A DNA stretch of 64,000 nucleotides from Hyphomicrobiales bacterium (GCA_019237205.1 JAFAHO010000060.1:716-64715); one strand, 5' to 3'; shown: positions 18,258 to 63,081, numbered from the stretch's first letter. Numbers and translations: made by a program. The notes: generated by a model not told the origin, from the sequence alone.

Positions 18258-18275
18258 TCGTACGTTAACGTACGA
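18258..18275. promoter_or_regulatory. Operator motif A, perfect 18-bp palindrome
   Basis: TCGTACGTTAACGTACGA, inside a minus-strand TTGACT(18284..18279)-N16-TACGAT promoter. Confidence 0.8.
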
Positions 18276-26693: not shown

Positions 26694-27218
26694 CTAGTTG
26701 AGCGTTTCAATATCCGAGCTCTCGCTCTCCTCTGCTTCAGCGCCGAGAATCTCGAGGAGCGTCTCCTTCAGCGTGCGCAGCGTTTCTGCCGCCTGCTCGA
26801 GCGCGGCCTCCGAAATGCGGCTCAGAATTTCGAGCTCGACGGTCTCCACGCTCTGCCGGATGGCGCTGACCATTTTCGCGCCGGCGCGCGTCAGGTGGAC
26901 CCGTCGCGCGCGGCCGTCGCTCTGATCCATTCGCCGCTCGACGAAGCCGGCGTTCTCCATGCGATCGAGCAGGCCTCCAACGGCCACCTTGGTGAGGTCG
27001 AGATCCGCCGCCAGCGCCGTCTGGGTCATCCCGTCGCGGCGCGAGAGAAACGCCAGCACCCACCATTGCGCGCGGGTGATCCCGAGCGGCTTCAGCGCCC
27101 GATCCACGGCGACGCGCCGCAGCCGGGAGACGTCGTGGATCAGGAAGCCGAAACGAAGCCCCGTGTTGAGGTCCCGCGCCGACGGCTTGTTTTCCGCTGG
27201 GGTAGGCCGCTTGTTCAT
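26694..27218 (-). CDS. MarR-family regulator 2, paralogue of 9993..10469
   Basis: GFLIHDVSRLRR, DRALKPLGITRAQWWVLAFLSR; ATG 27218 overlaps the ACAD stop. Confidence 0.92.
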   Translation of the reverse strand: MNKRPTPAENKPSARDLNTGLRFGFLIHDVSRLRRVAVDRALKPLGITRAQWWVLAFLSRRDGMTQTALAADLDLTKVAVGGLLDRMENAGFVERRMDQSDGRARRVHLTRAGAKMVSAIRQSVETVELEILSRISEAALEQAAETLRTLKETLLEILGAEAEESESSDIETLN

Positions 27219-45532: not shown

Positions 45533-45586
45533 CAAATGTCGAAACTCGGAACGAGGAAAGCAATGCGTTTCAAAGGGAGGCTAGGA

Positions 45587-46744: not shown

Positions 46745-46809
46745 GCGGCGGGCTCGCGCCCCGGTGAGTACGCGCAGATCACTCGCAAGCGCGACGAAAG
46801 ACTAGCGTC

Positions 46810-47706
46810 GTGCTGGCGAATCCAATCGTGTTGTTCATCCAGGTGATGAACGCGCTGTCGCTGGGCATGAGCCTTTTCGTCATCGCGGCGGGGCTCACGC
46901 TCATCTTCGGCGTGCTGCGGATCGTGAACTTCGCTCACGGCGCTTTTTACATGGTTGGCGCTTATCTCGCCTACACGGTTGTGCAAACTTTCGGAGACAC
47001 CAATTTGGGTTTCTTTCTTGGCGTGGCGGGCGCCGGACTTGGCATGGGGTTGATCGCATTCCTCATCGAACGGTTTCTCCTGACAAGGCTCTATGACAAG
47101 GACCCGATGCTGCAACTTCTCCTCACCTTCGCGCTGGTGATGATCCTCAGGGACGCGGTGCGAATGGTCTGGGGCTCAGATCAACATAGCATCTCGACGC
47201 CGCCGGCTCTGAGCGGCGCGGTGAATCTCGGGTTGACCTACTACCCTACCTATATGCTCTTCCTTCTCGTCCTCGGCCCGATCGTCGCCTTCGCGCTCTG
47301 GTTTGGAATAGAGCGGACGCGATGGGGTCGAATTGCTCGTGCCGCACGCCTCGATCGAGAAATGCTTTCTGCGTTGGGCGTCGACGTAAATCTTGTCTAC
47401 GCCGCAGTTTTTGTCGTGGGCTCGATGTTGGCCGCGATCGGCGGCGCTCTCGCTGCCCCGAGATCTGCCGTCGACCCCGGGATGGACGCACTCGTCATCA
47501 TCGACTGTTTCATCATCGTAGTGATCGGTGGGCTGGGGAGTCTGATTGGGAGCTTCGTTGGGGCTCTGATTCTGGGTTTCCTGACAATTTTCGGCTCGTT
47601 CTACCTTCAGGAATGGGTCATCGTTGCCTCGTATGCGATGATGGTTTTCATTCTGATCCTCCGCCCGTGGGGATTGTTCGGCCAATCCGACGAAGTCCGT
47701 CACTGA
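46810..47706 (+). CDS. livH: Liv/HAAT ABC permease
   Basis: GLTLIFGVLRIVNFAHGAFYMVG, VVIGGLGSLIG. Confidence 0.92.
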   Translation: MLANPIVLFIQVMNALSLGMSLFVIAAGLTLIFGVLRIVNFAHGAFYMVGAYLAYTVVQTFGDTNLGFFLGVAGAGLGMGLIAFLIERFLLTRLYDKDPMLQLLLTFALVMILRDAVRMVWGSDQHSISTPPALSGAVNLGLTYYPTYMLFLLVLGPIVAFALWFGIERTRWGRIARAARLDREMLSALGVDVNLVYAAVFVVGSMLAAIGGALAAPRSAVDPGMDALVIIDCFIIVVIGGLGSLIGSFVGALILGFLTIFGSFYLQEWVIVASYAMMVFILILRPWGLFGQSDEVRH

Positions 47707-48632
47707 TGACCAGCCGGCCGCAGCTCATCTTTCTCCTCGCCGTCTTTGCAGTGCTCGCGGTCGTCCCTTTTCTCGGCGCCCGCTACCCGGTGGAGCTGGC
47801 GACCCAGGTCATGATCTTCAGCCTCTTTGCGTTGAGCCTCAATGTCCTGGCGGGTCAGACCGGGAACCTATCATTTGGTCATGCGGCCTTCCTGTCGATC
47901 GGGGGATATGCCTGCGCCTATTTTCTGACCCGGCTCGGGTGGCCCCTGGCTGTTAGCATGGCGGGGGCGGTGATCATGTCGGCCGCAGCGGCGTTGATCA
48001 TCGGCGCGCTATGCGTTCGGCTGAACGCCATCTACTTTTCGATGCTGACGCTCGCGTTCTCAATGCTCGTTTGGGCCGTTGCGACCAAATGGAGGTCGAT
48101 CACCGGCGGAGACGACGGATTTGTGGGCGTCGACGTTCCGATTTATCTGACTAACCCCTATTCGTTCTTTTGGTTCACGCTGGCTGTGTGCGCGCTCTCT
48201 GTCGTGGCGCTTTGGATCCTGAGCGCGTCGGCAATGGGTCATGCCCTCGTCGCGATTCGTGAAAACCCGACACGAGCCAGCTTTCTCGGCATGAACGTGA
48301 AAAGGATGCGGCTTGCGGCTTTTGTCATAGCCGGGGCGTTCGCTGGTCTCGCCGGCTGCCTCCTCGCGATGTACGTTCGCGGGATGTACCCCCAAACGGC
48401 CTTCTGGACGCAGTCAGGTCAGGTCATCATCATGGTCCTTCTGGGCGGGATACACTCTTTTATAGGGCCGATCATTGGCGCGGCGGTGCTCTATCTACTG
48501 GAAGTCATCACCGAGCAATATACCGAGTACTGGTCCTTCGTAATGGGGCTCATCCTCCTCGCAATCGTCATGGCGTTTCCCGAGGGGCTCGTCGGGATAT
48601 TCTCCAAGCTGCGGGCGCCCCGGAGGAGTTGA
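47706..48632 (+). CDS. livM: Liv/HAAT ABC permease
   Basis: GNLSFGHAAF, YFSMLTLAF, TGGDDG, AIRENP; true start MTSRP at 47706. Confidence 0.9.
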   Translation: MTSRPQLIFLLAVFAVLAVVPFLGARYPVELATQVMIFSLFALSLNVLAGQTGNLSFGHAAFLSIGGYACAYFLTRLGWPLAVSMAGAVIMSAAAALIIGALCVRLNAIYFSMLTLAFSMLVWAVATKWRSITGGDDGFVGVDVPIYLTNPYSFFWFTLAVCALSVVALWILSASAMGHALVAIRENPTRASFLGMNVKRMRLAAFVIAGAFAGLAGCLLAMYVRGMYPQTAFWTQSGQVIIMVLLGGIHSFIGPIIGAAVLYLLEVITEQYTEYWSFVMGLILLAIVMAFPEGLVGIFSKLRAPRRS

Positions 48633-48635
48633 GGC

Positions 48636-49376
48636 TTGGCGATTCTCGAAATAGTCAACCTTACGAAGAATTTCGGCGCCTTTGTCGCCGTCCGCGGCGT
48701 AACGTTGCAGATCGAGGAATTTGCCACTCACGCAATCATCGGTCCCAATGGCGCGGGCAAAACGACGCTGTTCAATCTGATCAGCGGGTTGGCTTCGCCC
48801 ACGACGGGAGAGGTGTGGTATCGCCAGCAGCGGTTGGCGCGCTTGCAGCCCCATGAGATCGTCAGGGCCGGGATGGCGCGTTCGTTTCAGCGCGTGAACG
48901 TTTTTTCGCGAAGGACGGCGTTCGAAAATGTTCAAGTCGCGCTCATCGCGAGCGCTGGCATCAACTACAATTTTCTACGCAACGCAGGATCTCTGTTCCG
49001 CGAAGAGGCCCTGGAATTGCTCAGGCTGGTGCGATGCGAGGACGAAGCATTGCGGCGGGCGAGCGAACTGGCGTACGGCAAGCAGAAGCAACTAGAGCTC
49101 GCTGTTGCGCTTGCCGCGAAGCCCAAGCTCCTGCTGCTTGATGAGCCGACTGCAGGCATGTCGATTGCCGAAACAAAATCAACCATCGGCTTGATCAAGG
49201 ATGTCGTGGCGGACCGCGGACTCACGCTGCTCTTCACCGAACACGACATGAACGTCGTGTTTGAAATAGCGTCGGCGATTTCGGTCCTGCACCACGGCGA
49301 AATCATCGCCTCCGGGGCGCCTGAGGACGTCCGAAAGAACGACGACGTCAGGCGCGTCTATCTTGGCCAGGATTGA
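48636..49376 (+). CDS. livG: ABC ATP-binding subunit
   Basis: GPNGAGKT, ARSFQ, LAYG, LDEPTAG, TEHD. Confidence 0.92.
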   Translation: MAILEIVNLTKNFGAFVAVRGVTLQIEEFATHAIIGPNGAGKTTLFNLISGLASPTTGEVWYRQQRLARLQPHEIVRAGMARSFQRVNVFSRRTAFENVQVALIASAGINYNFLRNAGSLFREEALELLRLVRCEDEALRRASELAYGKQKQLELAVALAAKPKLLLLDEPTAGMSIAETKSTIGLIKDVVADRGLTLLFTEHDMNVVFEIASAISVLHHGEIIASGAPEDVRKNDDVRRVYLGQD

Positions 49377-50086
49377 CTATGGAGCTTCTCAAGGTCGAGA
49401 ATCTGTCAGTGTCTTACGGCCTGAGCCGCGTCCTCCACGACGTCTCGCTGGCGGTGAACAGCGGGGAGCTTGTCTCGCTGATTGGTCGAAATGGCGTCGG
49501 GAAGTCGACGACCATGAGAGGGATCATGGGGCTACAACCTCCGAGGGGTGGCTCGATCCTCTGGAAGGGAAAACAGATCGTCAGGAGGGCGGCACATCGC
49601 AATGCGCGCGATGGCATCGGGTACGTTCCCGAAGATCGGCGAATCTTCAGTGAATTGAGCGTTTGGGAGAATTTGGATGTCGCGCGCTTGCCGGCCCGCG
49701 GGGGCCAGACTCCATGGGACGAGGATCGTGTCTTCGCGCTCTTTCCCGATCTTCAGCAGTTCCGTGATCGTGCGGGGGGACTGTTGAGCGGCGGGCAGCA
49801 GCAGATGCTGACCATCGGCCGTACCCTGATGGGCAACCCCGAGCTTCTTCTCCTCGATGAGCCATCAGAAGGGGTCGCGCCTTTGGTGGTCAGACAGATC
49901 GAGCGAAAGATCCAGGAGTTGAAGCAGGCCGGACTGTCCATCGTGCTCGCGGAGCAGAACCTGGGCTTCGTGCTGGCGCTCAGCGACCGCTGCTACGTTC
50001 TCGAAAAGGGAGCAGTAGTGTTTTCGGGAACCGCGCGGGAGCTTGGCCGGAACCAGGATATCCAGGATCGGTATCTCCACGTGTAG
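49373..50086 (+). CDS. livF: ABC ATP-binding subunit
   Basis: GRNGVGKST, YVPEDR, LSGGQQQM, LDEPSEG. Confidence 0.92.
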   Translation: MTMELLKVENLSVSYGLSRVLHDVSLAVNSGELVSLIGRNGVGKSTTMRGIMGLQPPRGGSILWKGKQIVRRAAHRNARDGIGYVPEDRRIFSELSVWENLDVARLPARGGQTPWDEDRVFALFPDLQQFRDRAGGLLSGGQQQMLTIGRTLMGNPELLLLDEPSEGVAPLVVRQIERKIQELKQAGLSIVLAEQNLGFVLALSDRCYVLEKGAVVFSGTARELGRNQDIQDRYLHV

Positions 50087-50122: not shown

Positions 50123-51268
50123 TCAAACGTATTCTCTGCCGAACAGCTGACGCGCAATTATCAGCTTCTGAATTTGCGGCGTGCCGTCGGCAATCAGTTG
50201 TCCCGCGACATCGCGAAGCCTCTGCTCGACGGCAAAATCCTGCGTGTAGCCATAGTGGCCATGCAACACTAGACAGTCCTGAATGGCCCCCATGCAGATT
50301 TCCGGGATGAATCCTTTGCACATCGCGGCTTCCGCGTTGTGAGGGAGGCCCTGGTCGCGCAGCCATAGTGTGCGGTAGCAATGCCAGCGAGCCATGGTGA
50401 GGCGCGTGTGCCATTCGGCCACCGGAAATGAAACGCCCTGATTGCGCGTGATCGGTTGACCAAAAGCGATGCGGCTCTTGGTGTATTCGATCGTCTCTTC
50501 GAGGGAGATCTGCGCGGCCCCAATGCACATGAGTCCGATAAGCGCCCGCGTGTATTCAAACGTCTGCATGACGCGGGAGAAGGCTCCATTTTCGGGCCCG
50601 ATCATATTTTCCGAAGGCACTTCCACATCGTCGAGAAAGAGCGATCCACGCACGATGCCTTTTGCCCCCATATCTGAATATCGCGAGCGCGATACGCCAG
50701 CGGAGTGGAACGGAACGAGGAAGGCGGACACTCCGCGCGCCCCGGCATTCGGATCGGTCTTCGCGAATACGATGCCGGCGTGCCCGGCCATCAAAAGGGT
50801 GATTGCGGATTTCTCGCCACGGATGACGTAGTGGTCGCCCCGACGCTCAGCCTTGGTGCGAATCGCGGCTGCGTCCGACCCGCAATGCGGCTCCGTCAGG
50901 CAGACGCAAAGCACTTTCTCGCCCGAAGCCATCCCCGGCAACCATTCGCGCTGCACGGATTGCGACGCGTGCTGGCCAAGAAGGTCGCCGGCAAATGAGC
51001 TGTTCAAAATGCCGTAGCAACAGTTGAAGTCGCCCCGGGCGGCTTCCTCAATGGCGAGGCCGGCAGTGACGCAATCGAGGTTCTGCCCGCCATAGGCTTC
51101 AGGCACGCGCAGCCCCAGCAGGCCAACTGCGCCCATTTTGCGCCAGATCTCGGCAGGAAATTCGCCCGTCCTGTCCCAGTGAGCATATTTGGGGCGCAAT
51201 TCCCTTGCGGCGAACTCACGGAGGGAATCGCGCACCAGTTCCTGTTCCGGCGTGAGCGCGAAATCCAT
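50123..51268 (-). CDS. Second AliB/CHC-CoA dehydrogenase-like ACAD
   Basis: LTEPHCGSDAA, GEKSAI, RGSLFL, RALIGL, GLPHNAEAAMCK, HGHYGY, IADGT; start MDFAL at 51268. Confidence 0.85.
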   Translation of the reverse strand: MDFALTPEQELVRDSLREFAARELRPKYAHWDRTGEFPAEIWRKMGAVGLLGLRVPEAYGGQNLDCVTAGLAIEEAARGDFNCCYGILNSSFAGDLLGQHASQSVQREWLPGMASGEKVLCVCLTEPHCGSDAAAIRTKAERRGDHYVIRGEKSAITLLMAGHAGIVFAKTDPNAGARGVSAFLVPFHSAGVSRSRYSDMGAKGIVRGSLFLDDVEVPSENMIGPENGAFSRVMQTFEYTRALIGLMCIGAAQISLEETIEYTKSRIAFGQPITRNQGVSFPVAEWHTRLTMARWHCYRTLWLRDQGLPHNAEAAMCKGFIPEICMGAIQDCLVLHGHYGYTQDFAVEQRLRDVAGQLIADGTPQIQKLIIARQLFGREYV

Positions 51269-51380: not shown

Positions 51381-51395
51381 GTGATTCTCACTCAT
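51381..51395. promoter_or_regulatory. Operator motif B, weaker copy
   Basis: Reverse complement ATGAGTGAGAATCAC, 12/15 to the 51526 site. Confidence 0.45.
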
Positions 51396-51517
51396 GTTCT
51401 ATCGTGCCGAACGAGCGAGTGGCTTTCTGGGGAAGGATATGTCCAAAAGTCGCCGAAATTCGGGGACATCCCATTCGTCGGGGGATTCGCCCAAAGGCTT
51501 CACGGCGTTTTTTTGAC

Positions 51518-51546
51518 TTGACGTAGTGAGTGAGACTTACTATGGT
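51518..51546 (+). promoter_or_regulatory. Sigma70 promoter with operator motif B in the spacer
   Basis: TTGACG-N17-TATGGT; GTGAGTGAGACTTACTA at 51526..51542. Confidence 0.72.
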
Positions 51547-51584
51547 CGCCGGAGATTGGGGACGCGTTCGCCGAGGAGCTCGGG

Positions 51585-52733
51585 ATGGAAGACGTGCTGG
51601 ACCTGTTTGAGGACGTCGCCGCGGATTCCCTCGGCTACGCTCGGCGGTGGAAAGAGGAAACCGGCGGCCGAGTGATCGGCGTGCTGCCGATGCATTTTCC
51701 GGCCGAGCTTGCGCACGCAGCGGGAGCCCTCCCAGTTATCCTGCAGGAGGACGAAGAGCCGATCACGATCGGCCATAAGAGCGTTTTCAATTTTTATTGC
51801 GGTTTCAATCGCAGTCTGATCGACCAGGCGTTGCGCGGGAAGTTCTCGGGCCTCGACGCGATCATGTTTGGCGATCACTGCGTCCAGCTGTTGGGCACCG
51901 CTGACGTAATTCGCGCCAACATCCCGGGGCTGCCGATCCTTTTCAACCAGCTTTGTTCGATCATCGATGCGGAATGGGCCCTGGCCGAGACGGAGCGGAC
52001 CTTTCAGCAGCTGTGGAAGGAACTTGAAACGCTCATCGGCCGGAAGATCGATGAAGCGGATGTCCGGGCGTCCATTCGTCTTTTCAATCGCGACCGTGGG
52101 CTCATGCGGCGACTCTACGACTTGCGCCGCAATGGGCAGATCGCCTTGAGTGCGCGTCAAATGCAGGCAGTAGTCAAATCGTCGATGGTGATGGACAAGG
52201 CGCAGCATTGTGCGCTTCTCGAGAGGTTCCTTACCCAGAAGCGCTCGGAGCCTTCAGCCGTCAGGTCGGTCAGGGTGTTTCTGTCCGGTCACCTGTGTCA
52301 CGCGCCTAAGCTCGACATTCTCGACCTCATAGAAACATGCGGCGGGCGAGTTGTGGATGACGACTTGTACCACGGCTTCCGCTTCATATTTGCGGACATC
52401 GACGAGCAGGCGCCGCCCGTTCGGGCGCTTGCGGATTGGTACTTGAGTCGGAATCGAAAAGTTCCCTGCCCAACGCGAGCGGTCAAGGGAGCGGACTGGG
52501 AGCAATACCTCCTGAAAGCGGTCGCCGATTGCCGGGCTGACGGACTTATTGTGCTCATGGCCAAGTTTTGTGAGCCCCACATGTTTTTCTATCCCGAAAT
52601 CAAGGAAGCCTTTGAACGGCGCGGCGTTCCCCATCTTCTGGTCGAGACGGAGCACGAAGGGGTTGCGCTCGAAGCGCTGAAAACTCGTCTCGAGACTTTC
52701 ATGGAGATAACCCGGCGCGCTGTCGCCGCGTGA
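51585..52733 (+). CDS. Benzoyl-CoA reductase BcrC/BzdN-like or 2-hydroxyacyl-CoA dehydratase subunit
   Basis: YARRWKEETGGRVIG, ELAHAAG, C in GDHC, VVDDD, PCPT, KFCEPH, VPHL, RLETF. Confidence 0.85.
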   Translation: MEDVLDLFEDVAADSLGYARRWKEETGGRVIGVLPMHFPAELAHAAGALPVILQEDEEPITIGHKSVFNFYCGFNRSLIDQALRGKFSGLDAIMFGDHCVQLLGTADVIRANIPGLPILFNQLCSIIDAEWALAETERTFQQLWKELETLIGRKIDEADVRASIRLFNRDRGLMRRLYDLRRNGQIALSARQMQAVVKSSMVMDKAQHCALLERFLTQKRSEPSAVRSVRVFLSGHLCHAPKLDILDLIETCGGRVVDDDLYHGFRFIFADIDEQAPPVRALADWYLSRNRKVPCPTRAVKGADWEQYLLKAVADCRADGLIVLMAKFCEPHMFFYPEIKEAFERRGVPHLLVETEHEGVALEALKTRLETFMEITRRAVAA

Positions 52734-52766
52734 CCGATCGTCACGGCAGGTACGGAGGAGAAGTTC

Positions 52767-54125
52767 ATGCTGAATCTTGTTGATCGCCCGGGCCCCAGTC
52801 CCATTTTCGGCAACGGAGAGCGGGCCAATAGGCTTCAGAGCACCCGCTTTGGCGGCAAACTCGTCAACGCGTACTGGGAGAGTTTGTTTCGCGCCAAAGA
52901 AGAGGGAAAGAAGGTCGTCTGGTACAACGGAACCTATATCCCGCCGTTTTTTCACGCCCACGATCTCGCCTGGGTTCACGGCGAGGCGTGGTCCGCCTAT
53001 CTTGCGGCCAAGCATGGCGAGATGCCGGCGCAAAAGGCTGGAGAGCAGCGCGGATATGATCGCGAACTCTGCTCGTACGCGAGGACGCATATCGGTCAGG
53101 CGCTGATCGATCTCGGGAAACTTAAGGACGGGACGCTCGGAATTGCGCCCGACGATGAGCGCGCGGTCACCATGGCGAAGCTGCCGCCGCCGGACATGAT
53201 CATCAACGCTTATCCCTATTGCAGTTCGGGACAGCAGTGGGACGACATCACCTATCGGCTGTTTGGCAAGAAGGTGCCAATGTTCACCGTCTCGATCCCC
53301 TTGCTATGGGGCGGGCGGCCGGACGCAGGATATCTGCGCGGCGAGGAGTGGGAACAACGCTCTCGCTATGTCGCGGATCAGTTAGTCGCCATGACCCGGT
53401 TCCTCGAGGAGCATACCGGACGAAAATACAACTTTGACCGGCTAAGCGAAGTCATGGGCTACGTCAAAAAAGCTGCGCGGCTTCGATTGGAGGCTATGGA
53501 CCTTTGTACAGCGACTCCCTCGCCGGCGAGCTTTTTCGACTGGATCGTCAGCATTGCTCCGGTGAACTTTCTCCCCGGCGATCAGAACCTGGTCACGTAC
53601 TTCGAAGGCGTAAAGGCGGAGATCAAAGAGAGGGCGGAGCGGGGCATCGGCGCAGTCAAGGACGAGAAGTACCGGCTCTTCTTCGACGGGATGATGAACT
53701 GGAACAAGGTTGGCTGGCTTGCGGACAAATTCGCGGCGGTCAATGCCTGTGTCGTCGCAGGACGTTATACTCACATGTCGTTCTGGCAGGAGCCGGAATT
53801 GATCGATCTCGACGAACCTGTCCTGGGCATGGCGCAGAACTACCTGATCTGCCCCAACAATCATGGCGCTCCGATCATGATCGGAGAGATCGAGCGAATT
53901 TGCGACAAGTTTGGAATTGGTGGAATGGTGATGCACGCCTCGCGCACCTGTCGAGGCATGACCAATTCCCAGTTCCTCATTGCCGAGTCGGCGAAACGGA
54001 ACGGGCGGCAGGCTCTGTTCTTCGAGGGCGATGTCGCTGACGAGTCTTTCTATAAGGACGAATTGCTGAACACTCGACTCGAGGCGATGATTGAGTCGAT
54101 GGAGGCGCAACGGCGCGCGGCCTGA
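52767..54125 (+). CDS. Benzoyl-CoA reductase BcrB/BzdO-like or 2-hydroxyacyl-CoA dehydratase subunit
   Basis: ELCSY, LPPPD, YPYC, PSP, EKYRL, SRTC (three putative cluster Cys), FEGD, RLEAM. Confidence 0.85.
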   Translation: MLNLVDRPGPSPIFGNGERANRLQSTRFGGKLVNAYWESLFRAKEEGKKVVWYNGTYIPPFFHAHDLAWVHGEAWSAYLAAKHGEMPAQKAGEQRGYDRELCSYARTHIGQALIDLGKLKDGTLGIAPDDERAVTMAKLPPPDMIINAYPYCSSGQQWDDITYRLFGKKVPMFTVSIPLLWGGRPDAGYLRGEEWEQRSRYVADQLVAMTRFLEEHTGRKYNFDRLSEVMGYVKKAARLRLEAMDLCTATPSPASFFDWIVSIAPVNFLPGDQNLVTYFEGVKAEIKERAERGIGAVKDEKYRLFFDGMMNWNKVGWLADKFAAVNACVVAGRYTHMSFWQEPELIDLDEPVLGMAQNYLICPNNHGAPIMIGEIERICDKFGIGGMVMHASRTCRGMTNSQFLIAESAKRNGRQALFFEGDVADESFYKDELLNTRLEAMIESMEAQRRAA

Positions 54126-54474
54126 ATCGAACCGTGGCTTCGCGTTGGCGCCCGGCGCGCGTGGCCTCGACGGTTGGGTTCCTCTGATGGCCTCGCGACC
54201 TAGGCGCTTTGAACATTGGTCGAGGCCGATGGGAGAAGCGCGCGTTGGCGAGTCCGTGAGCCGCGGTTGGCCCTCGACTGAAGCACCTGCGTCCGGGATC
54301 AGGGGTCGCTTTCCATCTGCCGCAGGGAGCGAGCAAATCGCCGCTCCCCGGCCCGCATCGCGATTCTGTCTGACGTTAGTTGGACGTCCCGGGCTGTCCT
54401 CGAAAAATTCTTGGAAGCGTGGCGGCAGAGCGCGAAACCAGCGTGAATTTCGCCGGCTCCATATGCGAGAGCGC

Positions 54475-54503
54475 TTGCATTTCGTACGGTAACGTACTAT
54501 TGT
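54475..54503 (+). promoter_or_regulatory. Sigma70 promoter with operator motif A in the spacer
   Basis: TTGCAT-N17-TATTGT; TCGTACG-GTAA-CGTACTA at 54482..54499. Confidence 0.75.
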
Positions 54504-54537
54504 TCGGTCAATCCTTGGGAGGAGGCCGCACGGAGTC

Positions 54538-55335
54538 ATGGGCGAAACGAAGACCTGGAACACGCGGCCTCTCAACGAATGTAGTGTGTTGATCACCGGC
54601 GGGACTTCTGGCGTAGGATTGGCGACCGCGGTCCGCTTCGCAGAAGCCGGGAGCCCCGCGATTGGCATTGTTGGCAGGAATCGGGAGCGCGGCGAATCCG
54701 CGATGCGGAAGGTTCGTGAGAAAGCCCCACGTTCGCAGGTTCGTTTTTTCCCGGGCGACTGCAATTTGGCAGACCAGGCGACCGTCGTCTGCGAGGCGGC
54801 GCAACAGGAATTTGGCCGCCTCGACGTATTGGTCAATTCGACGACTGGCTCCTATGCTCCAAAGCTTCTGCACAAGACCGGTCTCGATGAGATTCAGAGT
54901 GTTCTCTTCGAGCAAATCATGGCGCCGTTGCTGACAAGCCGGATCGTCCTTCCCTTCATGACTGCGCAAGGCGGAGGCGCGATCGTCAATGTCGCGTCGG
55001 ACGCAGCGAAGGTGGCGACGCCCGGCGAGACGGTCCTCTCTGCGGCAATGGCCGGCATCGTGATGTTCTCCCGGACGCTTGCGATAGAGGCCAAGCGAAA
55101 CGGCATCCGGGTCAATGTCGTGACCCCATCGATTATTGAGGGCACCGCGACCCGCGACAAAGTGATGGGTGACGAATTCGCCGGCAAGCTGTTCGGGAAG
55201 GCGATCAAACTTGCGCATCTCGGAGTTGTCAACGCCTACGATATGGCCGACCTGATCGTCTTCCTCGCGAGCCCGCAGGCGGCCAAGATTTCCGGTCAGG
55301 CGATAAGTCTGAACGGAGGAATCTCTGCGGCATGA
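54538..55335 (+). CDS. Atypical SDR, BadH-like, catalytic YxxxK replaced by LxxxM
   Basis: TGGTSGVG, NVASDAAKV, ETVLSAAMAG, ISGQAISLNGG. Confidence 0.82.
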   Translation: MGETKTWNTRPLNECSVLITGGTSGVGLATAVRFAEAGSPAIGIVGRNRERGESAMRKVREKAPRSQVRFFPGDCNLADQATVVCEAAQQEFGRLDVLVNSTTGSYAPKLLHKTGLDEIQSVLFEQIMAPLLTSRIVLPFMTAQGGGAIVNVASDAAKVATPGETVLSAAMAGIVMFSRTLAIEAKRNGIRVNVVTPSIIEGTATRDKVMGDEFAGKLFGKAIKLAHLGVVNAYDMADLIVFLASPQAAKISGQAISLNGGISAA

Positions 55336-55388
55336 GAGTCCATGAAGCGCCTTGATATCGAAGTGACGTCCGAGAGTTGGGTGGGACA

Positions 55389-56297
55389 ATGAAGCAAGCG
55401 ACTGCCCTCGCCGCGTCCGCGTCGCGGACGACCTATGATTCGATCTTTCGCCCCAAGCTCTTCGACCAACGGACGATAATCGTTACCGGGGGCGGCAGCG
55501 GCATCGGCCGTTGCATCGCGCACGAGCTCGCGTCTCTCGGCGCGAGCGTCATCCTCCTGGGCCGTACGTCCAACAAACTGGACACCGTCGCACGAGAGAT
55601 TGAAGAGGATGGCGGCCAAGCGATGGCCCATGTCTGTGATATTCGCGACGAGGTCCAAGTGGCAGGGGCTATCGAGGCTGCGCTCGCCTGGCGAGGCGGA
55701 ATTGACGGGCTCGTCAACAACGCCGGCGGTCAGTATCGCGCCGCCATGCGGACAATTACAACCAAGGGATTTGAGGCTGTTGTCCGCAACAATCTCACCG
55801 GAGGGTTCGTCTTCATGCGGGAGGTCTACAATCGCTGGATGGCTGGGCACGGCGGCGCGATCGTCAATATCATCGCCGATATCTGGAACGGCTGGCCAGA
55901 ATTCGCGCATTCCGGCGCGGCGCGCGGCGGCATGCTGACTTTGACCGAGACCGCGGCTTACGAGTGGGCGTCGTCGGGAGTCCGGGTCAATGCGGTTGCG
56001 CCAGGCGGCATCGCGTCCAGCGGATTTGATACCTATACGCCGGAGATGCGCGAGCGACTGTTCGACTACACGCATCGCATCCCCGCTCAGCGTTTCGGGA
56101 CCGAAGCTGAAGTCTCGGCCGCCGTAGTCTTCCTGCTTTCTCCGGCTGCGGCCTACATCACCGGCTCCTGCCTGCGCGTGGATGGCGGGGCGCCAAACGC
56201 GCGGCAAACCGGTCAACTGGAGCCCCACGCGAACAGTTCACCCTTCGAGGGCTTCCATCGCTCGAGCTTACCGGAAGTGCTCAAGCTTCGGCGCTGA
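55389..56297 (+). CDS. SDR, AtuB / trans-2-enoyl-CoA reductase-like
   Basis: SIFRP, TGGGSGIGRCIAHELA, NNAGGQY, HSGAAR, RFGTEAEVS. Confidence 0.82.
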   Translation: MKQATALAASASRTTYDSIFRPKLFDQRTIIVTGGGSGIGRCIAHELASLGASVILLGRTSNKLDTVAREIEEDGGQAMAHVCDIRDEVQVAGAIEAALAWRGGIDGLVNNAGGQYRAAMRTITTKGFEAVVRNNLTGGFVFMREVYNRWMAGHGGAIVNIIADIWNGWPEFAHSGAARGGMLTLTETAAYEWASSGVRVNAVAPGGIASSGFDTYTPEMRERLFDYTHRIPAQRFGTEAEVSAAVVFLLSPAAAYITGSCLRVDGGAPNARQTGQLEPHANSSPFEGFHRSSLPEVLKLRR

Positions 56298-56367
56298 CCA
56301 GGACGATAGTTGTGGAGTGCAATTCTCGCCAGAACCGCGAATCCAGCGGTCCAAATAGGAGGGAACG

Positions 56368-58026
56368 TTGAGCGCAGCCAGGTTCTCCGTCTCGTACCAT
56401 CCGGCCGATCCCGGTCCGCCCCTCTGGGAGATGACCGTCGGCGATATGATGGAGAAGATTGCGACCGCATGGCCTGATCGTACGGCCCTGGTCGAGGGAG
56501 TTTCGGACCCATCGAAGCGGCGACGGTGGACCTTCCGTCAGTTGGTTGATCAATCGAAGTCGCTTGCGCGAGCTCTGCTGAAGCGGTTCGAGGTTGGCGA
56601 CAGGATTGGGCTGCTGGCCCCTGAAACGCCCGAGTGGATGCTTTTCCAGCATGCCTTGAGCTACGCTGGACTGATCATCGTGCCGGTCAATCCAACCTAT
56701 ACAGAGCGGGAACTCGAGTTCGTGTTGCAAAACTCTGGAGCCCGGGGCTTGGTCTTCGCCGAGGCGTCACGCAATAGAGCGCTCCGACCCGTGGTTGAGG
56801 CGATACGTCCGAAGCTGCCGGAATTGCGGGAGACGATCTCGCTCGATGAGATCGGAGATCTGCTTGCACAATCCGACCCGTCGGTCGCGTTACCTCAGCT
56901 TGATCCCAGAGCCACCATGCAAATTCAATACACATCCGGCACAACGGGCCAACCCAAAGGCGCCTGCCTACACCATATGGCGGTGGTCAACACCGCGCGA
57001 CAGATCGCCGATCGCGCTGACTTTCCAGAGGGCGGAGTCTGGATCAATGCGATGCCGATGTTTCATATCGGCGGGGGCATCGTCAGTCAGATCGGCACGT
57101 TCAGTCACGCCGGCACATTTGTGCTCATGCAAGCCTTCGAGCCCGGCCTTTTCCTTGAGCTAATCGAATCGGAGCAGTGTAACAATTCGCTGATCGTACC
57201 GACGATGATTCTCGCGCTGCTCAATCATCCCGACATGAAAACGCGCGACGTGTCGAGCTTCAAATCCATTCTTTCCGGAGCATCCAACGTACCCGCCGCT
57301 CTGGTCATGCGCGCCAAACAGGAATTCAACTGCAATTTCTGCATCATGTATGGCCAGACTGAGAGCAACGGTCCATTTCTCGAGACTTCGACGAGCGATC
57401 CGGTCGAACGGCAGACCGAGACGATCGGTCGCCCGACGCCCCACATTGAGGTGATGATCGCCAACATCGAGACCTCAAAGCCGCAGCCACTCAATACCGT
57501 AGGCGAAATCTGGGTTCGTGGCTTCCTCACGATGTCCGGCTATTACGGGATGCCGGAGGCGAGCGCCGCTGCGCTCACAAGCGAAGGCTGGCTGAGGACT
57601 GGCGACCTCGGCAGGATGGATGAGGACGGTTACTTTAAGATCACCGGTCGACTGAAGGAGATGATCATCCGCGGGGGCATGAACCTCTATCCCAAGGAAA
57701 TCGAGGACGTCATCTTCCAGCACCCGAAAGTCGGGCAGATCGCGGTTGTCGGGTTGCCAGACGAGAGCTGGGGCGAAATCGTCGCTGCTGTGGTGCAGCC
57801 AAAGGCGTCGGAGACAATTACGGCAGACGAACTCTACGCCTACTGCCGGAAATACCTGTCGCCGCAGAAGACGCCGGAGCGCTGGTTCTTCGTCGATCAC
57901 TATCCGATGACCGCGACCGGGAAGATCCAAAAGAACAAATTGACCACTTCGATCCAGGAGGGCGAGATTCTTGCCGTGGATTGGCGAAAGCCGTCCGGAT
58001 CCGGCGCCCGCGCCACCTCGCTGTGA
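56368..58026 (+). CDS. Acyl-CoA synthetase (AMP-binding, FadD-like)
   Basis: YTSGTTGQPKG, YGQTE, LRTGDLG, GRLKEMIIRGG, GKIQK; TTG start. Confidence 0.92.
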   Translation: MSAARFSVSYHPADPGPPLWEMTVGDMMEKIATAWPDRTALVEGVSDPSKRRRWTFRQLVDQSKSLARALLKRFEVGDRIGLLAPETPEWMLFQHALSYAGLIIVPVNPTYTERELEFVLQNSGARGLVFAEASRNRALRPVVEAIRPKLPELRETISLDEIGDLLAQSDPSVALPQLDPRATMQIQYTSGTTGQPKGACLHHMAVVNTARQIADRADFPEGGVWINAMPMFHIGGGIVSQIGTFSHAGTFVLMQAFEPGLFLELIESEQCNNSLIVPTMILALLNHPDMKTRDVSSFKSILSGASNVPAALVMRAKQEFNCNFCIMYGQTESNGPFLETSTSDPVERQTETIGRPTPHIEVMIANIETSKPQPLNTVGEIWVRGFLTMSGYYGMPEASAAALTSEGWLRTGDLGRMDEDGYFKITGRLKEMIIRGGMNLYPKEIEDVIFQHPKVGQIAVVGLPDESWGEIVAAVVQPKASETITADELYAYCRKYLSPQKTPERWFFVDHYPMTATGKIQKNKLTTSIQEGEILAVDWRKPSGSGARATSL

Positions 58027-58817
58027 AGGTCGACGCCGGAGTTGCGAGGACACGACCGGTCGCGCTTGTGACGGGCGCGGGCGGAGGACTTGGCGCGGCA
58101 ATCGCCGTCGCACTTGCGAAGTCGGGTTTCGACCTGGCGCTGAATGATCTTGCTGAAAGCGAATCCCTTCGCAACGTTGTCGCGCGCGCTTCAGATCGCG
58201 GCGCCCGAGCCCAAATCTTCGCGCGCGATCTCGCGCAGATCGAAGAACTACCGAACTTCGTTGGATCTGTATGCGATGACTTCGGAGAGGTGGACTGTCT
58301 TGTCAACAACGCGGGCGTGTCAGTTCTCTCGCGCGGGGACATTCTGGATGTCGCCCCTACCAGCTTCGACCGCTGCATCGGCGTCAATCTGCGCGCCCAG
58401 TTCTTCTTGACGCAAGCGATGGCTCGCAGAATGGCCGCGCAAGCGGCCAACGGCCGACGGCGTTCGATCATCACGGTCACCAGCGTCGCCGTGGACGAGA
58501 TAGTCGGCGCCGCGCTCGCGGAATACAGCATCTCAAAGGCCGGTCTGTCGCACATGATCAAGCATTTCGCCGTGAGGCTCGCCCCGCTTGGCGTCGAGTG
58601 CTACGAACTGCGCCCTGGAATGATGAAAACCAACATGACGGGTTCTTCACGGAAGAAATACGACGACCTTATCGCTTCGGGATTCGTGGCGGCGAATCGC
58701 TGGGGGGAAGTCGACGAGATCGCCGAAACGGCGGCCAGTCTTGCGAGCGGCGCCCTTCGCTACACCGTTGGCCAGATCGTAAACGTCGACGGCGGGATGT
58801 GGCTCAAGACCTTCTGA
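58023..58817 (+). CDS. Classical SDR oxidoreductase
   Basis: TGAGGGLG, NNAG, YSISK; GTG start overlaps the ligase stop. Confidence 0.85.
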   Translation: MKVDAGVARTRPVALVTGAGGGLGAAIAVALAKSGFDLALNDLAESESLRNVVARASDRGARAQIFARDLAQIEELPNFVGSVCDDFGEVDCLVNNAGVSVLSRGDILDVAPTSFDRCIGVNLRAQFFLTQAMARRMAAQAANGRRRSIITVTSVAVDEIVGAALAEYSISKAGLSHMIKHFAVRLAPLGVECYELRPGMMKTNMTGSSRKKYDDLIASGFVAANRWGEVDEIAETAASLASGALRYTVGQIVNVDGGMWLKTF

Positions 58818-58902
58818 ACACGCGCGCCGAATCTAGTTGCAGCTCTCGATGGTGCCATTTGAAGAGACGACGTTTCGCGCCTTCACGTGCGGCGCGGCTC
58901 CT

Positions 58903-59859
58903 TCAGATGTGAGCGTGGATTCTTTGCCAAATGTCGCCGACAGGACGCGGCTCGACGGCGGTCGCGAGAGCGGCTTGCGTTCCCTTGCATCCGGGAACAC
59001 AGGACGCCTGGCTTAGAGTCATCTGACGATCTAGCGGTTCGTCATCCTCGATCGACGCGTCTTGCCTCCTGCATTCAGCTAGATAATCGTCGAGCCCGAT
59101 CAAGGCGGCGCCCAACGCCCCCGCGATCTGGGGCGCGGCCGGCAGAATGACCGGCATGCCGATCGCTTTCTCAATGTAGTGTACCGCCGCTCTGTTGCGC
59201 GCGACGCCGCCGGTCATGACCACGGGCCCCTGCTGTCCGACCCGGGCGACCAGGCCCGCGGTCCTGGTCGCGATCGCCGCATGGACCGCCCCCAATACGT
59301 CGGGCTTTGTCCGCCCCTCGGCCAGAAGCGAGATGACTTCGGTTTCAGCGAAGGTCGCGCACATGCTCGAGATTCGCAGTTCGTGGCGCGCGTCAAGCGC
59401 GGTCTCGCCCATAAGGTCGAGGTCGATCGACAACGCGCGCGCAAGCACCTCAAGGAATTTTCCGGTGCCGGCGGCGCAACGGTCGTTCATCGCAAATTGG
59501 GTCACAAGCCCCTTCGCGTCGACCGCTATGGTCTTGCTGTCCTGACCGCCTATATCGATGATCAGCCGGGCCTCCGGGACCATTGCGACGGCGCCTCGCG
59601 CGTGGCAGGTGATTTCGGTATAATTCTTGTCAGCCATGTCGAGCATGCGCCGACCGTAGCCGGTGCTCACGGTGCGCCCCATGTCGTTCTGGCTGAGGCG
59701 CGCCTCTTGTAGCGCGCCCTCGACTGAGGCCTTCACGCCTTCACCGCTGACCGCGCCCATATGGGCGACGCAAGATGCGACCATCTCGCTTTTCAGGTTC
59801 AGAATTACCGTCTTAGCGGTCGTCGAACCGAAGTCAATTCCCATTACATAGGACTTCAT
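58903..59859 (-). CDS. ASKHA-family [4Fe-4S] activase (HgdC / BzdQ-like) with C-terminal extension
   Basis: GIDFGSTTAK, STGYGR, TEITCH, DIGGQDSK, MNDRCAAGTG, SSMCATFAE, GGVARN, AGALGAAL. Confidence 0.92.
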   Translation of the reverse strand: MKSYVMGIDFGSTTAKTVILNLKSEMVASCVAHMGAVSGEGVKASVEGALQEARLSQNDMGRTVSTGYGRRMLDMADKNYTEITCHARGAVAMVPEARLIIDIGGQDSKTIAVDAKGLVTQFAMNDRCAAGTGKFLEVLARALSIDLDLMGETALDARHELRISSMCATFAETEVISLLAEGRTKPDVLGAVHAAIATRTAGLVARVGQQGPVVMTGGVARNRAAVHYIEKAIGMPVILPAAPQIAGALGAALIGLDDYLAECRRQDASIEDDEPLDRQMTLSQASCVPGCKGTQAALATAVEPRPVGDIWQRIHAHI

Positions 59860-59898
59860 GGCGCGGTCCTCTGTCCCGGAATAGGAGCGCAAGAATAG

Positions 59899-59939
59899 GT
59901 GAGTTGGACTTACTAACGACAAAAGACGGCGAATGTCAA
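59899..59939 (-). promoter_or_regulatory. Activase promoter with operator motif B
   Basis: GTGAGTTGGACTTACTA at 59899..59915 (15/17 to the 51526 site); minus-strand TTGACA at 59939..59934. Confidence 0.72.
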
Positions 59940-60010
59940 GGTACGCGAGCCACGGCGAGCGCCCTGAATGGCCAGCGGGTCGCGGCGACTCTGCCGATGG
60001 CGAGCCTGCC

Positions 60011-60757
60011 TCACTTCAAATTCTGGGTCGATGCAAGCTCCTGGCGCAATTCTGCGACTCCCGCGCTGAGTTTTCCGATCGACTCCTGCAATTGTGAAGC
60101 CACGTCCACGAGGGTGGCGACAGACCCTGATCTGGGCCGCTGACCCAGGCCGTTCGTAATCACGTCGGCAATGGCCGAAGCCGAGTCATCGACGGAAAAG
60201 TCTCCCTCGCCCCTCAAATAAGCCCATGTCTGGTGTTCGATGGCGCCGAAGATCATGTCGCGGATGACTTTTGGTGGAACGTCTCCCCTGAGTTCGCCGC
60301 GGCGGATCCCCTCGGCCACCACATCCGTCACCATGGCCGCAAATCTACGGTTCTGCTCGTAGGATTTCATTTTGCGGAAGTCCGGATCCGGTCGCAGCTC
60401 CAATAGGACAAACCGGGTAAGGGCGGGCTCCTTCTTTATCCCCCACAGGTTTCTCCAGATGACCCTGAAAAGTCTCTCTCGAATCGGCTCATCCGGGTTC
60501 GAAGGCGGGTCTTCGGTGAGAAACTCCTCAAACCAGTCCTCGGCTACACGCTGAAGCAATTCGCGTTTCGTGCTGAAGTACTTGTAGATCGTGCCTTCCG
60601 AGACCCCACACCGCTGCGCCACTTCAGAGGTCAGAAACTGTTCCGATCCGCGCTCGCGCAACACGACCCGGGCGGTCTGCAAAATAGAAGCAATGCGATG
60701 GTCTTTCGGAAGCCGTTTCGCTGACGGGCGGGAAAGCGGGGGGAGTGGCCGTTCCAT
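60011..60757 (-). CDS. TetR-family regulator
   Basis: ILQTAR, EVAQRCGVSEGTIYKYFSTKRELL HTH. Confidence 0.92.
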   Translation of the reverse strand: MERPLPPLSRPSAKRLPKDHRIASILQTARVVLRERGSEQFLTSEVAQRCGVSEGTIYKYFSTKRELLQRVAEDWFEEFLTEDPPSNPDEPIRERLFRVIWRNLWGIKKEPALTRFVLLELRPDPDFRKMKSYEQNRRFAAMVTDVVAEGIRRGELRGDVPPKVIRDMIFGAIEHQTWAYLRGEGDFSVDDSASAIADVITNGLGQRPRSGSVATLVDVASQLQESIGKLSAGVAELRQELASTQNLK

Positions 60758-60889
60758 ATTGTTATATTTCAGCACCAGATTGTGGCATTACACCTATCCT
60801 TATCGTCTGTAGCAGAACGATCAAAACTGCCGTGCGCTTTTGTTCTCGAGTTTGTTCCTTCGGTGCTATCCTAACTGGTGCGCTGGCTG

Positions 60890-61228
60890 ATGGAAGTTAG
60901 CACGGGTCGTGCCGAACATTTGCCCTTTGGCGCGTCCTGTTCCCTTGGTCGGCACCCCTCCTGCGACGAAGGCGTTTACAGGCGCCGGTCGGGGCGCGTA
61001 GCCGGGATAGCCCTCGGGATGCTAACCGAGCGCGGGCCGACGTTCGCCGTCGAGACGTTCTGGCGCCACGAATTACTTCAACTTCCAAGTGCCGAGCAGC
61101 GGATCATCGCCGAGCGACATCCTGGCAGTCCCGACTAACGCCAGCACACAGATCGCCACGATAGCGAGCCGCGCGAATCTCGTTGCGAGGTGGGTTGAGC
61201 CGCCATGGCCGTGATAGTTCCAGCTCAT
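60890..61228 (-). pseudogene. Secreted lipocalin-like protein pseudogene
   Basis: Signal peptide, then DDPLLGTWKLK*FV...GERRPALG*HPEGYPGYA; two in-frame stops and a later frameshift; GGGAGG RBS; left boundary approximate. Confidence 0.6.
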
Positions 61229-61523
61229 CCGCGCCCTCCCGTATCGCTTGCACGTATCCATCGCTCAACGCCAATTGATACCCTTCGGAGCAGACTGCGG
61301 TCCGACGGCTTTCCTACTGACGCCGGTGTGCCGTCATTCATTTAGGAAGGGATACCGCCAGCCTAGAAACTGTATAAAAACGGGTGACGTCACTCAGGCA
61401 ACCTGCCCGATTTGGACGAGCCGGACTGCTGAGGTAATGGCAGTTGCCACGGGCTTGGCTACGGAGTGATCTATGTTAACCGAGGGCAACAGACCTAAGG
61501 AGGCACTAACGAGCAGCGAGCAA

Positions 61524-61558
61524 CCGCCGTTCTAAATAAGATCTCTCTAGAACGGTGG
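61524..61558. repeat. Inverted arm-type motifs at the island's right end
   Basis: CCGCCGTTCTA (61524..61534) and TAGAACGGTGG (61548..61558); the latter also at 59..69. Confidence 0.6.
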
Positions 61559-61584
61559 GCGCTAGCCTAATATCCTGAAATTGC

Positions 61585-61630
61585 TGGCGCGCCCGAAGAG
61601 ATTCGAACTCCTGACCCCCAGATTCGCAGT
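61585..61630 (-). repeat. att site 2: 3' half of tRNA-Arg with an anticodon-loop substitution
   Basis: 45/46 identical to 95..140; C61627 versus T137. Confidence 0.92.
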
Positions 61631-61773
61631 TTGTCTGCTGGGCCGTACCGAGGCTTTCCATTTGTGCGCTTGGACCCCTAAGTTGTCGATCACACCTTTG
61701 TGTTTTATTGTGTTTTGGCTACTTTAGCGTAGGATAGCAAACTGCGGCTCTCAAACTCGTGAGCCTGCAACCG

Positions 61774-61792
61774 CCGTTCTAACACCGTTCTA
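61774..61792 (+). repeat. Tandem CCGTTCTA arm-type motifs
   Basis: Same motif and spacing as 284..302. Confidence 0.65.
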
Positions 61793-61797
61793 ACGTC

Positions 61798-63081
61798 ATG
61801 CTGCACTCCCGACTTTCCTTCTCTGATCGAGCGATCGGCGCTTTGCCGTTCGCTGCATCTGGCCAGCATATCGTGCGAGATAAGGATATGGCGGGCTTTT
61901 TTCTCCTCGTCGGTACCCGTTCCAAGACCTTCATGATCCAGGGCGATCTTTGGGAGAATGGAAAGCGACGGACCATCCGGGTGAAAGTCGGGGAGGTGGG
62001 CAGAATTGCAACCCGAGAGGCGCGAGCGAAAGCGAAGGTGCTCCTCGGGTCAATTGCCAACGGCGTCGATCCGCGGCCTAAGCCGGAGGAGCCATTGAGC
62101 CCTACTCCGAACGGGCCCGACCCCACCTTAAGGCAGGCGTGGGAGCGCTACCGGGATGGGCATATGAAGCGGAAAGGGAGAAGCGGCGGCACGATCGAGA
62201 ATTATAGGGACCATGTCGAACGGCTGATGTCAGATTGGCTCGATATTCCCCTATCCAAGCTTGGGCTCCAGCCGGACTTGGTGAGAGCTCGGCACGAAAA
62301 GCTCAGTCAAGAGAACGGAAACTATATTGCAAACGGCTGCATGCGAACGCTGCGCGCGATCTACAATCACGCTCGCAAAGCAGCGAGGGGCCTTCCTCCG
62401 GACGACCCCGTCTCAGCGGTTGATTGGAATTTGGAACGCCGGCGAGACACAGCCCTTGGGCTCGCCGATCTCAAGGGTTGGTTCAATGAATTGGCGGCGC
62501 TCGAAAACCCGGTGCGGCGAGAATTTCATCTTTTCCTCCTGCTCTCGGGCCATCGCCCGGAGGCGATCAAGGAGTCGCGCAGGGAGGACCTGGATTTTCG
62601 CCGACGCTTCCTGCACGTGCCGAAGCCGAAAGGTGGAGAGGCGAGAGCATTCGACATTCCGCGGTCGGCCCATGATTCGCTGCCTGGTCCGCGTTCTGCG
62701 CTTTGGGCAGTTGCTCTATCCTTACCAATCAGCGGAATGGGCATTTCCAGCTGATAGCGAGAGCGGACATTTGGCGGAGCACAAGGAGAAGCGTGGTGAG
62801 CTGTCAAAGTGGGGCAACGACCTGAGGCAGACGTTTCGGACGATTGCGCAGACCGCCGGTGTGCCAGAACTGGATGTCCACCTGCTGATGAACCATTCAA
62901 TTCCGGGAGTGAACGCAGGCTACATCACCCGCAACAAGCTGCTGCGCGACCATCTTCGAATTCAGCAGGAGGCGATCTCGCGAAAAATGATCGCGCGGCA
63001 CGAGGCGCCAACCAGGACGAGCCGCAAGCGACGGCTCTTTGGATTGACATGCCCGCGCGGAGGCTTGTCGCGAGCATGTAA
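61798..63081 (+). pseudogene. Near-full-length tyrosine integrase with two frameshifts
   Basis: Arm-binding N-terminus, SGHRPE, PKPKGG, NDLRQTF, MNHS, AGYI; frame changes at ~62660..62671 and ~62993. Confidence 0.85.

Follow-up and report, generated by a model that had tools for sequence, protein, structure and literature searches.

A palindrome shared by the promoter regions of a separated acyl-CoA dehydratase activase and the alpha/beta subunit genes is probably the operator of an adjacent FadR-like TetR regulator

The locus and its shared palindrome

We analysed a 64,000-nt stretch of DNA from a Hyphomicrobiales bacterium (referred to as the window; host draft genome of 5,455,350 bp, 64.8% G+C, 459 contigs), in which the genes for the alpha and beta subunits of an HGD-D family enzyme are separated from an acyl-CoA dehydratase activase gene that lies next to a TetR-type regulator gene. 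The alpha (51585-52733; Pfam PF06050, 1.4e-67) and beta (52767-54125; PF06050, 7.8e-48) genes are on the plus strand, and the activase (BcrAD_BadFG ATPase; Pfam 2.7e-59; TIGR00241 248 bits, above the cut-off) is encoded on the minus strand at 58903..59859. Behind it, also on the minus strand (60011..60757), lies the gene for a FadR/YsiA-like TetR protein of 248 amino acids with Pfam TetR_N, TetR_C_24 and TetR_C_4 domains. An acyl-CoA dehydrogenase (ACAD) gene (50123..51268, minus strand; Pfam ACAD domains) diverges from alpha; its real start is the ATG at 51268, and its best NCBIfam match was cyclohexanecarboxyl-CoA dehydrogenase, at 393 bits under the cut-off of 575. The genome has one copy each of alpha, beta, activase and this TetR. 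It holds 29 TetR_N genes in all, of which only the one at 60011-60757 is on this contig.

An initial annotation of the window had reported GTGAGTGAGACTTACTA between TTGACG and TATGGT upstream of the alpha/beta genes, together with a copy identical at 15 of 17 positions (GTGAGTTGGACTTACTA) upstream of the activase. Both sites were borne out, the former at 51526-51542 by the sequence and a promoter scan, and the latter at 59899-59915. Searching the window with up to 3 mismatches returned exactly these two 17-mer matches, against a chance expectation of 0.03, and 0 of 100 shuffled sequences yielded two. The core had been described as an imperfect palindrome GTGAG-N5-CTYAC; it is indeed palindromic, and is better written as GTRAGT-N3-ACTYAC, a 15-bp site of 6-3-6 structure (referred to as motif B). 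Within the 5,455,350-bp genome this form occurs only twice, at 51526 and 59899. The corresponding putative operators are O1 (51526..51540; GTGAGT-GAG-ACTTAC), in the spacer of the alpha/beta promoter, and O2 (59899..59913; GTGAGT-TGG-ACTTAC), between the TetR stop and the activase start, its centre 47 bp 5′ of the activase ATG.

The weaker copy that had been proposed at 51381, upstream of the divergent ACAD, does not fit GTGAG-N5-CTYAC within one mismatch; compared with the 6-3-6 palindrome, it agrees at 10 of 12 positions. This third putative operator, O3 (51381..51395; GTGATT-CTC-ACTCAT, or, read on the minus strand, ATGAGT-GAG-AATCAC), is located between the ACAD and alpha genes, ~120 bp ahead of the ACAD start codon and at a distance of 145 bp from O1. 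The half-sites are thus GTGAGT/GTAAGT at O1 and O2 and ATGAGT at O3, and the consensus among orthologous loci (see below) is GTGAGT-N3-ACTCAC. A weight matrix built from 35 distinct orthologue sites, with the window sites excluded, scored 59899 at 26.4 bits, 51526 at 25.1 bits and 51381 at 19.2 bits; the next match in the window reached 9.2 bits. Over all 5.4 million positions of the genome, the top three matches were these three window sites and the fourth scored 17.1 bits. We regard the 51381 site as real because it is the third-best match in the genome to a matrix derived from other genomes.

The matrix scan revealed no other regulon members in the host genome: lesser matches (at most 17.1 bits) were AT-rich and on other contigs, and another match, C128:53683, sits between convergent genes. 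Within the window, neither the ABC transporter genes (45536-50086) nor SDR1, the first gene downstream of beta, had a motif B site in front of them. An RNA hairpin or terminator was also considered for O1 and rejected, since O1 is upstream of the predicted start point and its stem would comprise only 5-6 imperfect pairs.

Position of the palindromes relative to promoters

The predicted sigma-70-type promoter of alpha/beta (51518..51546, plus strand) consists of TTGACG (51518-51523), a 17-bp spacer and TATGGT (51541-51546). It matched at 9 of 12 positions (shuffle mean 0.2) and was the sole promoter called in the ACAD/alpha intergenic region. O1 fills its spacer, and the order of –35 element, 2 bp, 15-bp palindrome and –10 element is kept in alphaproteobacterial orthologues, the architecture being conserved in 11 orthologous alpha promoters. 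This conserved arrangement between –35 and –10 is the position expected of a repressor. In the alpha′ promoters of relatives (preceding a second subunit pair, see below), the –10 element falls within the palindrome.

For the activase, the initial annotation had the 59899 copy overlapping a –10 element downstream of a perfect TTGACA. The TTGACA is indeed present, as the –35 element (59939-59934) of a candidate promoter at 59911..59939 on the minus strand, but the –10 assignment is less certain, as the options are poor (TTAGTA at 17 bp, 59916-59911, or TAGTAA at 18 bp). An alternative promoter, TTGTCG-19 bp-TATTCT, resembles the arrangement in the congeneric genome G018. O2 overlaps both candidates, neither of which is strong.

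Conservation in orthologous loci

The initial annotation had proposed that absence of the motif upstream of orthologous operons would refute a shared operator. Scanning one genome per species gave 14 loci with alpha orthologues (from betaproteobacteria including Rhodoferax, from Mesorhizobium, Kumtagia, Salipiger, a Paracoccaceae genome and Solimonas, and from two actinobacteria), to which G018 was added, and the motif was found at the proteobacterial loci. All proteobacterial loci carried 2-3 copies of the palindrome each, almost all in promoter regions. In total, 341.5 kb of orthologous loci contained 42 sites of at least 13 bits, nearly all at promoters of alpha, alpha′, ACAD/ligase and a binding-protein gene. 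Across alpha-, beta- and gammaproteobacteria, the motif was located on the promoters of orthologous alpha/beta, alpha′-beta′-activase, ACAD/ligase and transporter units, and it was kept at equivalent promoter positions over these three classes while the flanks had diverged. In relatives, the palindrome also preceded a gene for a solute-binding protein and a divergent gene for a family III CoA-transferase, and in nearly all orthologous loci a second, distal site lay 72-150 bp away from the proximal site. When up to one mismatch was allowed genome-wide, the matches were concentrated likewise, with 4 of 7 on the 8.4-Mb Mesorhizobium chromosome falling in the ~20-kb cluster and 3 of 3 in Kumtagia falling in the cluster.

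In five genomes, the TetR and activase orthologues lay 12-17 kb away in the same cluster, with the activase as third gene of a second, alpha′-beta′-activase operon bearing the palindrome on its promoter. Together with the single copies in the window's genome, this operon under the same operator further supports the earlier proposal that the separated activase and the alpha/beta genes form one system.

The number of HGD-type pairs differed among the genomes, with three in betaproteobacterial relatives, two in alphaproteobacterial relatives and one in the window's genome. In L012, L013, L014 and L019, a second alpha/beta pair directly followed the first on its 3′ side, and in L037-L042 a third or second pair stood together with the activase. 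Despite several pairs, a single activase gene was found in each of five genomes searched.

In Amycolatopsis, the motif was absent upstream of alpha (L021:5950-6100), where a different inverted repeat, TTAGACAT-N22-ATGTCTAA, was present. This difference suggests that the regulator has been replaced in the actinobacterial operon.

The adjacent TetR as the probable binding protein

TetR orthologues of 50-60% identity were present in 10 of 10 proteobacterial genomes with the motif, and 2 of 2 actinobacterial genomes lacked both the TetR orthologue and the motif, so that regulator and palindrome co-occurred across genomes. In the compact clusters (L009 and L020; G018 and Solimonas), the TetR was the only regulator and was flanked by sites. 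In G018, a congener, the tetR-ACAD and alpha′-beta′-activase-SDR operons diverge, and the region between them holds two sites.

A further sample comprised 80 metagenome loci selected solely for their TetR similarity (37-72% identity, 526 kb), for which the reversed matrix served as control and the site threshold was at least 15 bits. These loci contained 49 sites versus 2 with the reversed matrix, a ~25-fold enrichment. A site within 300 bp upstream of tetR was found in 17 of 72 loci versus 0 in the control, often 10-40 bp upstream and opposite a divergent ACAD gene. Two of the metagenome loci (L052 and L053; TetR 72% and activase 79% identity) had the same tetR-then-activase layout as the window, and their spacer carried two sites in a position homologous to O2, with a shared TTTGTCGTTA adjoining the site upstream.

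The recognition helix and the half-site also co-varied among paralogues. Orthologues with the recognition helix RCGxSEATIYKYF were associated with the half-site GTGAGT, and paralogues with the recognition helix RAGVVEGSIYRF (39-43% identity) with ATGAAT-type half-sites nearby. Together with the half-site shared with the solved FadR-DNA complex (below), these make five lines of evidence that uphold the earlier assignment of the motif to the adjacent TetR, and we consider it likely, from these sequence comparisons, that the FadR-like TetR encoded at 60011-60757 uses all three palindromes as operators. The accompanying claim that this TetR represses all three units holds less firmly, as control of the ACAD is uncertain and repression is deduced from the position of the sites.

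Paralogous TetRs (39-45% identity) were found beside ATGAAT-N3-ATTCAT-type palindromes such as GAATGATGAATTATCTTCATTAAC in L029, L031, L049 (Mesorhizobium), L066, L077, L082, L087, L126 and L130. These palindromes sit 5′ of crotonase-TetR-ligase or ACAD units and are even nearer to the Bacillus FadR box.

Relation to FadR and other regulators

The N-terminal domain of the TetR matched PF00440 (TetR_N) over residues 25-71 (E 2.4e-13; 50.1 bits, cut-off 24), and its C-terminal domain was YsiA/FadR-like, with 34.6 bits for PF08359 (TetR_C_4; cut-off 21) and 34.8 bits for PF17932 (TetR_C_24; cut-off 26.4). This pairing of TetR_N with a YsiA-like C-terminal domain is common to FadR. The closest solved structures were Bacillus subtilis FadR (1VI0, 3WHB/3WHC) and Bacillus halodurans FadR (5GP9/5GPC), with E-values of 1e-14 to 8e-11; the alignment to 1VI0 and 3WHB spans residues 21-207. 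Each monomer of B. halodurans FadR reads 5′-ATGA(A/G)T-3′ through Gly42 and Tyr45 (PMC5397183), and Gly55 and Tyr58 of the TetR align with these base-contacting residues of helix alpha-3. The half-site here, RTGAGT, corresponds to the same 6 bp.

The two systems differ in several respects. The half-sites are separated by 4 bp in FadR but by 3 bp in all window and orthologue sites, giving a 15-bp site. FadR binds two overlapping repeats as a dimer of dimers, whereas a repeat offset by 4 bp matches at no more than 3 of 6 positions at O1 and is absent at O2. Operators sit at promoters of acyl-CoA catabolic genes in both cases, but the FadR regulon comprises beta-oxidation, whereas the one described here is local, with three genome sites, and centres on a radical HGD/BCR-type dehydratase and its activase. 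Finally, FadR (YsiA) has been characterised in Bacillus subtilis and Bacillus halodurans, whereas the hosts here are proteobacteria.

The same logic of a small palindromic operator at few catabolic promoters, an in-cluster regulator and a likely CoA-thioester effector is shared by KstR2, PaaR, PsrA, FadP and LiuQ. KstR2 was a weak structural-sequence match to the TetR (E ~3e-6). The operators of KstR2 (AnCAAGnnCTTGnT) and PsrA (GAAAC-N-GTTTC) differ from the motif found here. BadR, a MarR family protein, reportedly controls the bad-ali cyclohexanecarboxylate genes in Rhodopseudomonas and Aromatoleum. The BadR-regulated cluster contains an AliB-like ACAD, a BadH-like SDR and a CoA ligase, and the neighbour genes here have their best functional matches among these; BadR belongs to another regulator family, and its regulon is not known to include an HGD-type dehydratase or activase. 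Reports of FadP are confined to betaproteobacteria, where it has ~18 target genes in each genome (PMC5343134), unlike the present regulator, which spans three classes with a handful of sites. Our literature searches found no description of this regulator, operator or cluster.

Proposed regulation

In the proposed mechanism, each monomer of a TetR dimer would read one RTGAGT half-site of the 15-bp GTRAGT-N3-ACTYAC palindrome. Because O1 and O2 overlap core promoter elements, repressor bound at O1 (in the –35/–10 spacer of alpha/beta) or at O2 (in the –10/start region of the activase) would exclude RNA polymerase from these promoters; at O2, it would in addition stop any transcription running on from tetR into the activase gene. 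Occupation of O3 would either repress the divergent ACAD or strengthen repression at O1. Release would most likely follow binding of a pathway CoA thioester to the FadR-like C-terminal domain, and the catalytic pair, its lone activase and, probably, the ACAD would be induced as a group. That the TetR binds, in which direction it regulates and what releases it are points that we infer, the last by analogy with FadR.

A number of observations weigh against this assignment. The agreement with the matrix is partly circular, because its sites were first selected with a pattern taken from the window, so that part of the enrichment is circular as well; the flanking positions and the TetR-anchored metagenome test are independent of that choice. 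No autoregulatory site of at least 8 bits was present upstream of the window tetR (60758-61000), and no site of at least 10 bits was found within 1.5 kb of the betaproteobacterial tetR orthologues, although G018 and many more distant family members do have an autoregulatory site. Furthermore, the promoter scanner called no promoter upstream of the activase, where the –10 element is weak. FadR was the best NCBIfam model for the TetR, but the score for the Bacillus FadR equivalog (NF053878) was 75.9 bits against a cut-off of 200, and the protein is therefore a relative of FadR and not an orthologue. Lastly, the contig carries two MarR_2-type genes (~10089-10265, plus strand, and ~26907-27086, minus strand; 60 and 59.5 bits), both within the window.

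Alternative explanations

These MarR genes might point to another transcription factor as the protein that binds the palindrome, be it one of the two contig MarR proteins or a global regulator, with the closeness of tetR being coincidental. In line with this, several promoters in relatives bear two different palindromes, which would imply at least two regulators acting on the cluster. The compact clusters L009 and L020, however, contain motif B and the TetR but no copy of a second palindrome described below (motif A), motif B is enriched in loci chosen only by TetR similarity (and there often lies 10-40 bp upstream of tetR), and its half-site is identical to that in the solved FadR-DNA complex. 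A CRP or FNR site was rejected, since both the half-sites and the spacing differ from the consensus sequences of CRP (TGTGA-N6-TCACA) and FNR (TTGAT-N4-ATCAA). We therefore consider binding by another factor improbable. Activation or dual regulation by the TetR itself, as known for mycobacterial FasR, seems to us just as improbable. The TetR does match the activator FasR weakly in NCBIfam (33 bits), and in relatives several distal sites are, like O3, located upstream of core promoters, but O1 between –35 and –10 and O2 over the –10/start region occupy typical repression positions, and the Bacillus FadR proteins, its closest relatives to have been characterised, act as repressors that acyl-CoA releases (PMC5397183). 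That the similarity of the sites reflects chance, or a functionless relic of duplicated or mobile DNA, might be suspected from the integrase-like open reading frame (ORF; 61798-62754) and the contig end adjoining tetR, and from a gene order unlike that of relatives, which indicates that rearrangement has occurred. This explanation is effectively refuted by the shuffles, of which 0 in 100 reproduced the pair, by the uniqueness of the sites in the genome, and by the retention of the motif at equivalent promoters in three classes despite diverged flanks.

The role of O3 is less certain, and with it the earlier claim of ACAD control. The best ACAD promoter candidate (TTGCGC-17 bp-TACGGT) lies such that O3 is ~50 bp upstream of it and would not simply occlude it, and a motif-A-like GTAGCGTACGACCGTAC adjoins this candidate. 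Moreover, betaproteobacteria have kept the distal site ~90 bp upstream of the proximal one although the upstream ligase2 gene is co-directional and no divergent promoter exists there; because of this, O3 may also, or instead, assist repression at O1. There is thus a considerable, if lesser, chance that O3 serves the alpha/beta promoter as an accessory operator further upstream, with cooperative or higher-order binding, and that the ACAD is controlled by something else. Three findings argue in the other direction. In G018, tetR and, behind it, the ACAD orthologue (68% identity) belong to a unit that starts at the operator-bearing divergent region. Salipiger, Mesorhizobium and L023 have strong sites (24.7-26 bits) between the divergent ACAD and ligase2 genes, 83-95 bp away from the ACAD start. 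Lastly, the distal-proximal spacings (72, 76, 89-93, 145 and 150 bp) show no constant helical phase, and for this reason we do not claim DNA looping between O1 and O3 either. On balance, these comparisons make the ACAD probably a member of the regulon.

Origin of the layout and significance

In the window, as in L052 and L053, the activase alone remains behind tetR. The central AGTCCAACTCA of O2 recurs in the proximal alpha′ operator of G018, and it is a reasonable inference from these sequences that an alpha′-beta′ pair was lost from in front of the activase; searching with tblastn, we found no alpha′/beta′ or CoA-transferase remnants near tetR. Beside tetR (60758-62754), ~1 kb without a long ORF is followed by the ORF at 61798-62754, which has only an integrase Arm DNA-binding domain, and the contig ends ~190 bp past the window. 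Compared with relatives, the ABC transporter is found at the opposite side of the cluster. The cluster proteins are nearer to beta- and alphaproteobacterial orthologues (alpha 62-73%, TetR ~58%) than to those of G018 (53% and 45%). The differing gene order, these identities and the integrase ORF near the contig end together suggest rearrangement or horizontal acquisition of the cluster.

The shared operator constitutes regulatory evidence, independent of gene order, that ties the lone activase to the genome's only HGD-type alpha/beta pair. The small regulon recurs in relatives from Mesorhizobium, Kumtagia, Salipiger, Rhodoferax and Solimonas, where it also takes in the second alpha′-beta′-activase operon, the family III CoA-transferase and the solute-binding protein. 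More broadly, we tentatively propose, as a plausible extension that we hold with less than even confidence, that a large undescribed branch of FadR-like TetRs has RTGAGT-N3-ACTCAY as its operator and uses the FadR half-site at a spacing 1 bp shorter. In alpha-, beta- and gammaproteobacteria, this branch would delimit the full gene set of an uncharacterised ATP-dependent radical acyl-CoA dehydratase/reductase pathway, with one activase per 1-3 catalytic pairs. If so, the CoA-thioester effector of the branch would name the pathway substrate, and the TetR could serve to screen CoA esters for the inducer and hence the substrate.

As regulation, the mechanism would be a conventional and conserved switch of an ordinary kind, in which one FadR-type half-site is reused at a different spacing. 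Its main value lies in tying together the parts of an uncharacterised radical-enzyme pathway, for which the regulon offers a practical handle in hosts not usually tied to such oxygen-sensitive chemistry.

A second palindrome and neighbouring genes

Between beta and the activase lie the genes SDR1, SDR2, AMP-ligase and SDR3 (54538-58817; Pfam/NCBIfam assignments). The region upstream of SDR1 (54126-54537) contains no motif B match of at least 8 bits, so this SDR-ligase unit is without the operator described above. It carries instead motif A, a palindrome GTACG-GTAA-CGTAC at 54484..54497. This site falls outside the present regulon and occupies the spacer of TTGCAT-17 bp-TATTGT, the likely promoter of SDR1-SDR2-ligase-SDR3. 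Because the SDR-ligase unit carries this distinct palindrome, at least two regulators would control the cluster. Motif A is conserved upstream of SDR1 in orthologues (L012, L014, L017). Among the regulator families searched on the contig, no GntR and no convincing IclR member was found, and the two MarR proteins are candidate binders of motif A.

The core of motif A is GTACG-N4-CGTAC, occurring in perfect form as TCGTACGTTAACGTACGA at 18260, and the exact form is found only at 54484 and 18260 in the 5.45-Mb genome. Sites were located at 54484-54497, 18260-18273 and 7548-7561 in the window, and at L012:8088, L013:8067, L014:8088 and L019:5642 in relatives. The promoters with such a site in their spacer belong to the SDR1-ligase unit, to an ACAD gene at 16979-18226 and, in relatives, to divergent ligase genes.

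The window also contains an APH/ACAD (Lva-like) operon at 10-18 kb, and in Mesorhizobium an APH-family kinase gene adjoins tetR (L037:10979-12046). With APH genes in both the Mesorhizobium cluster and the window, the two gene sets therefore appear to travel together.

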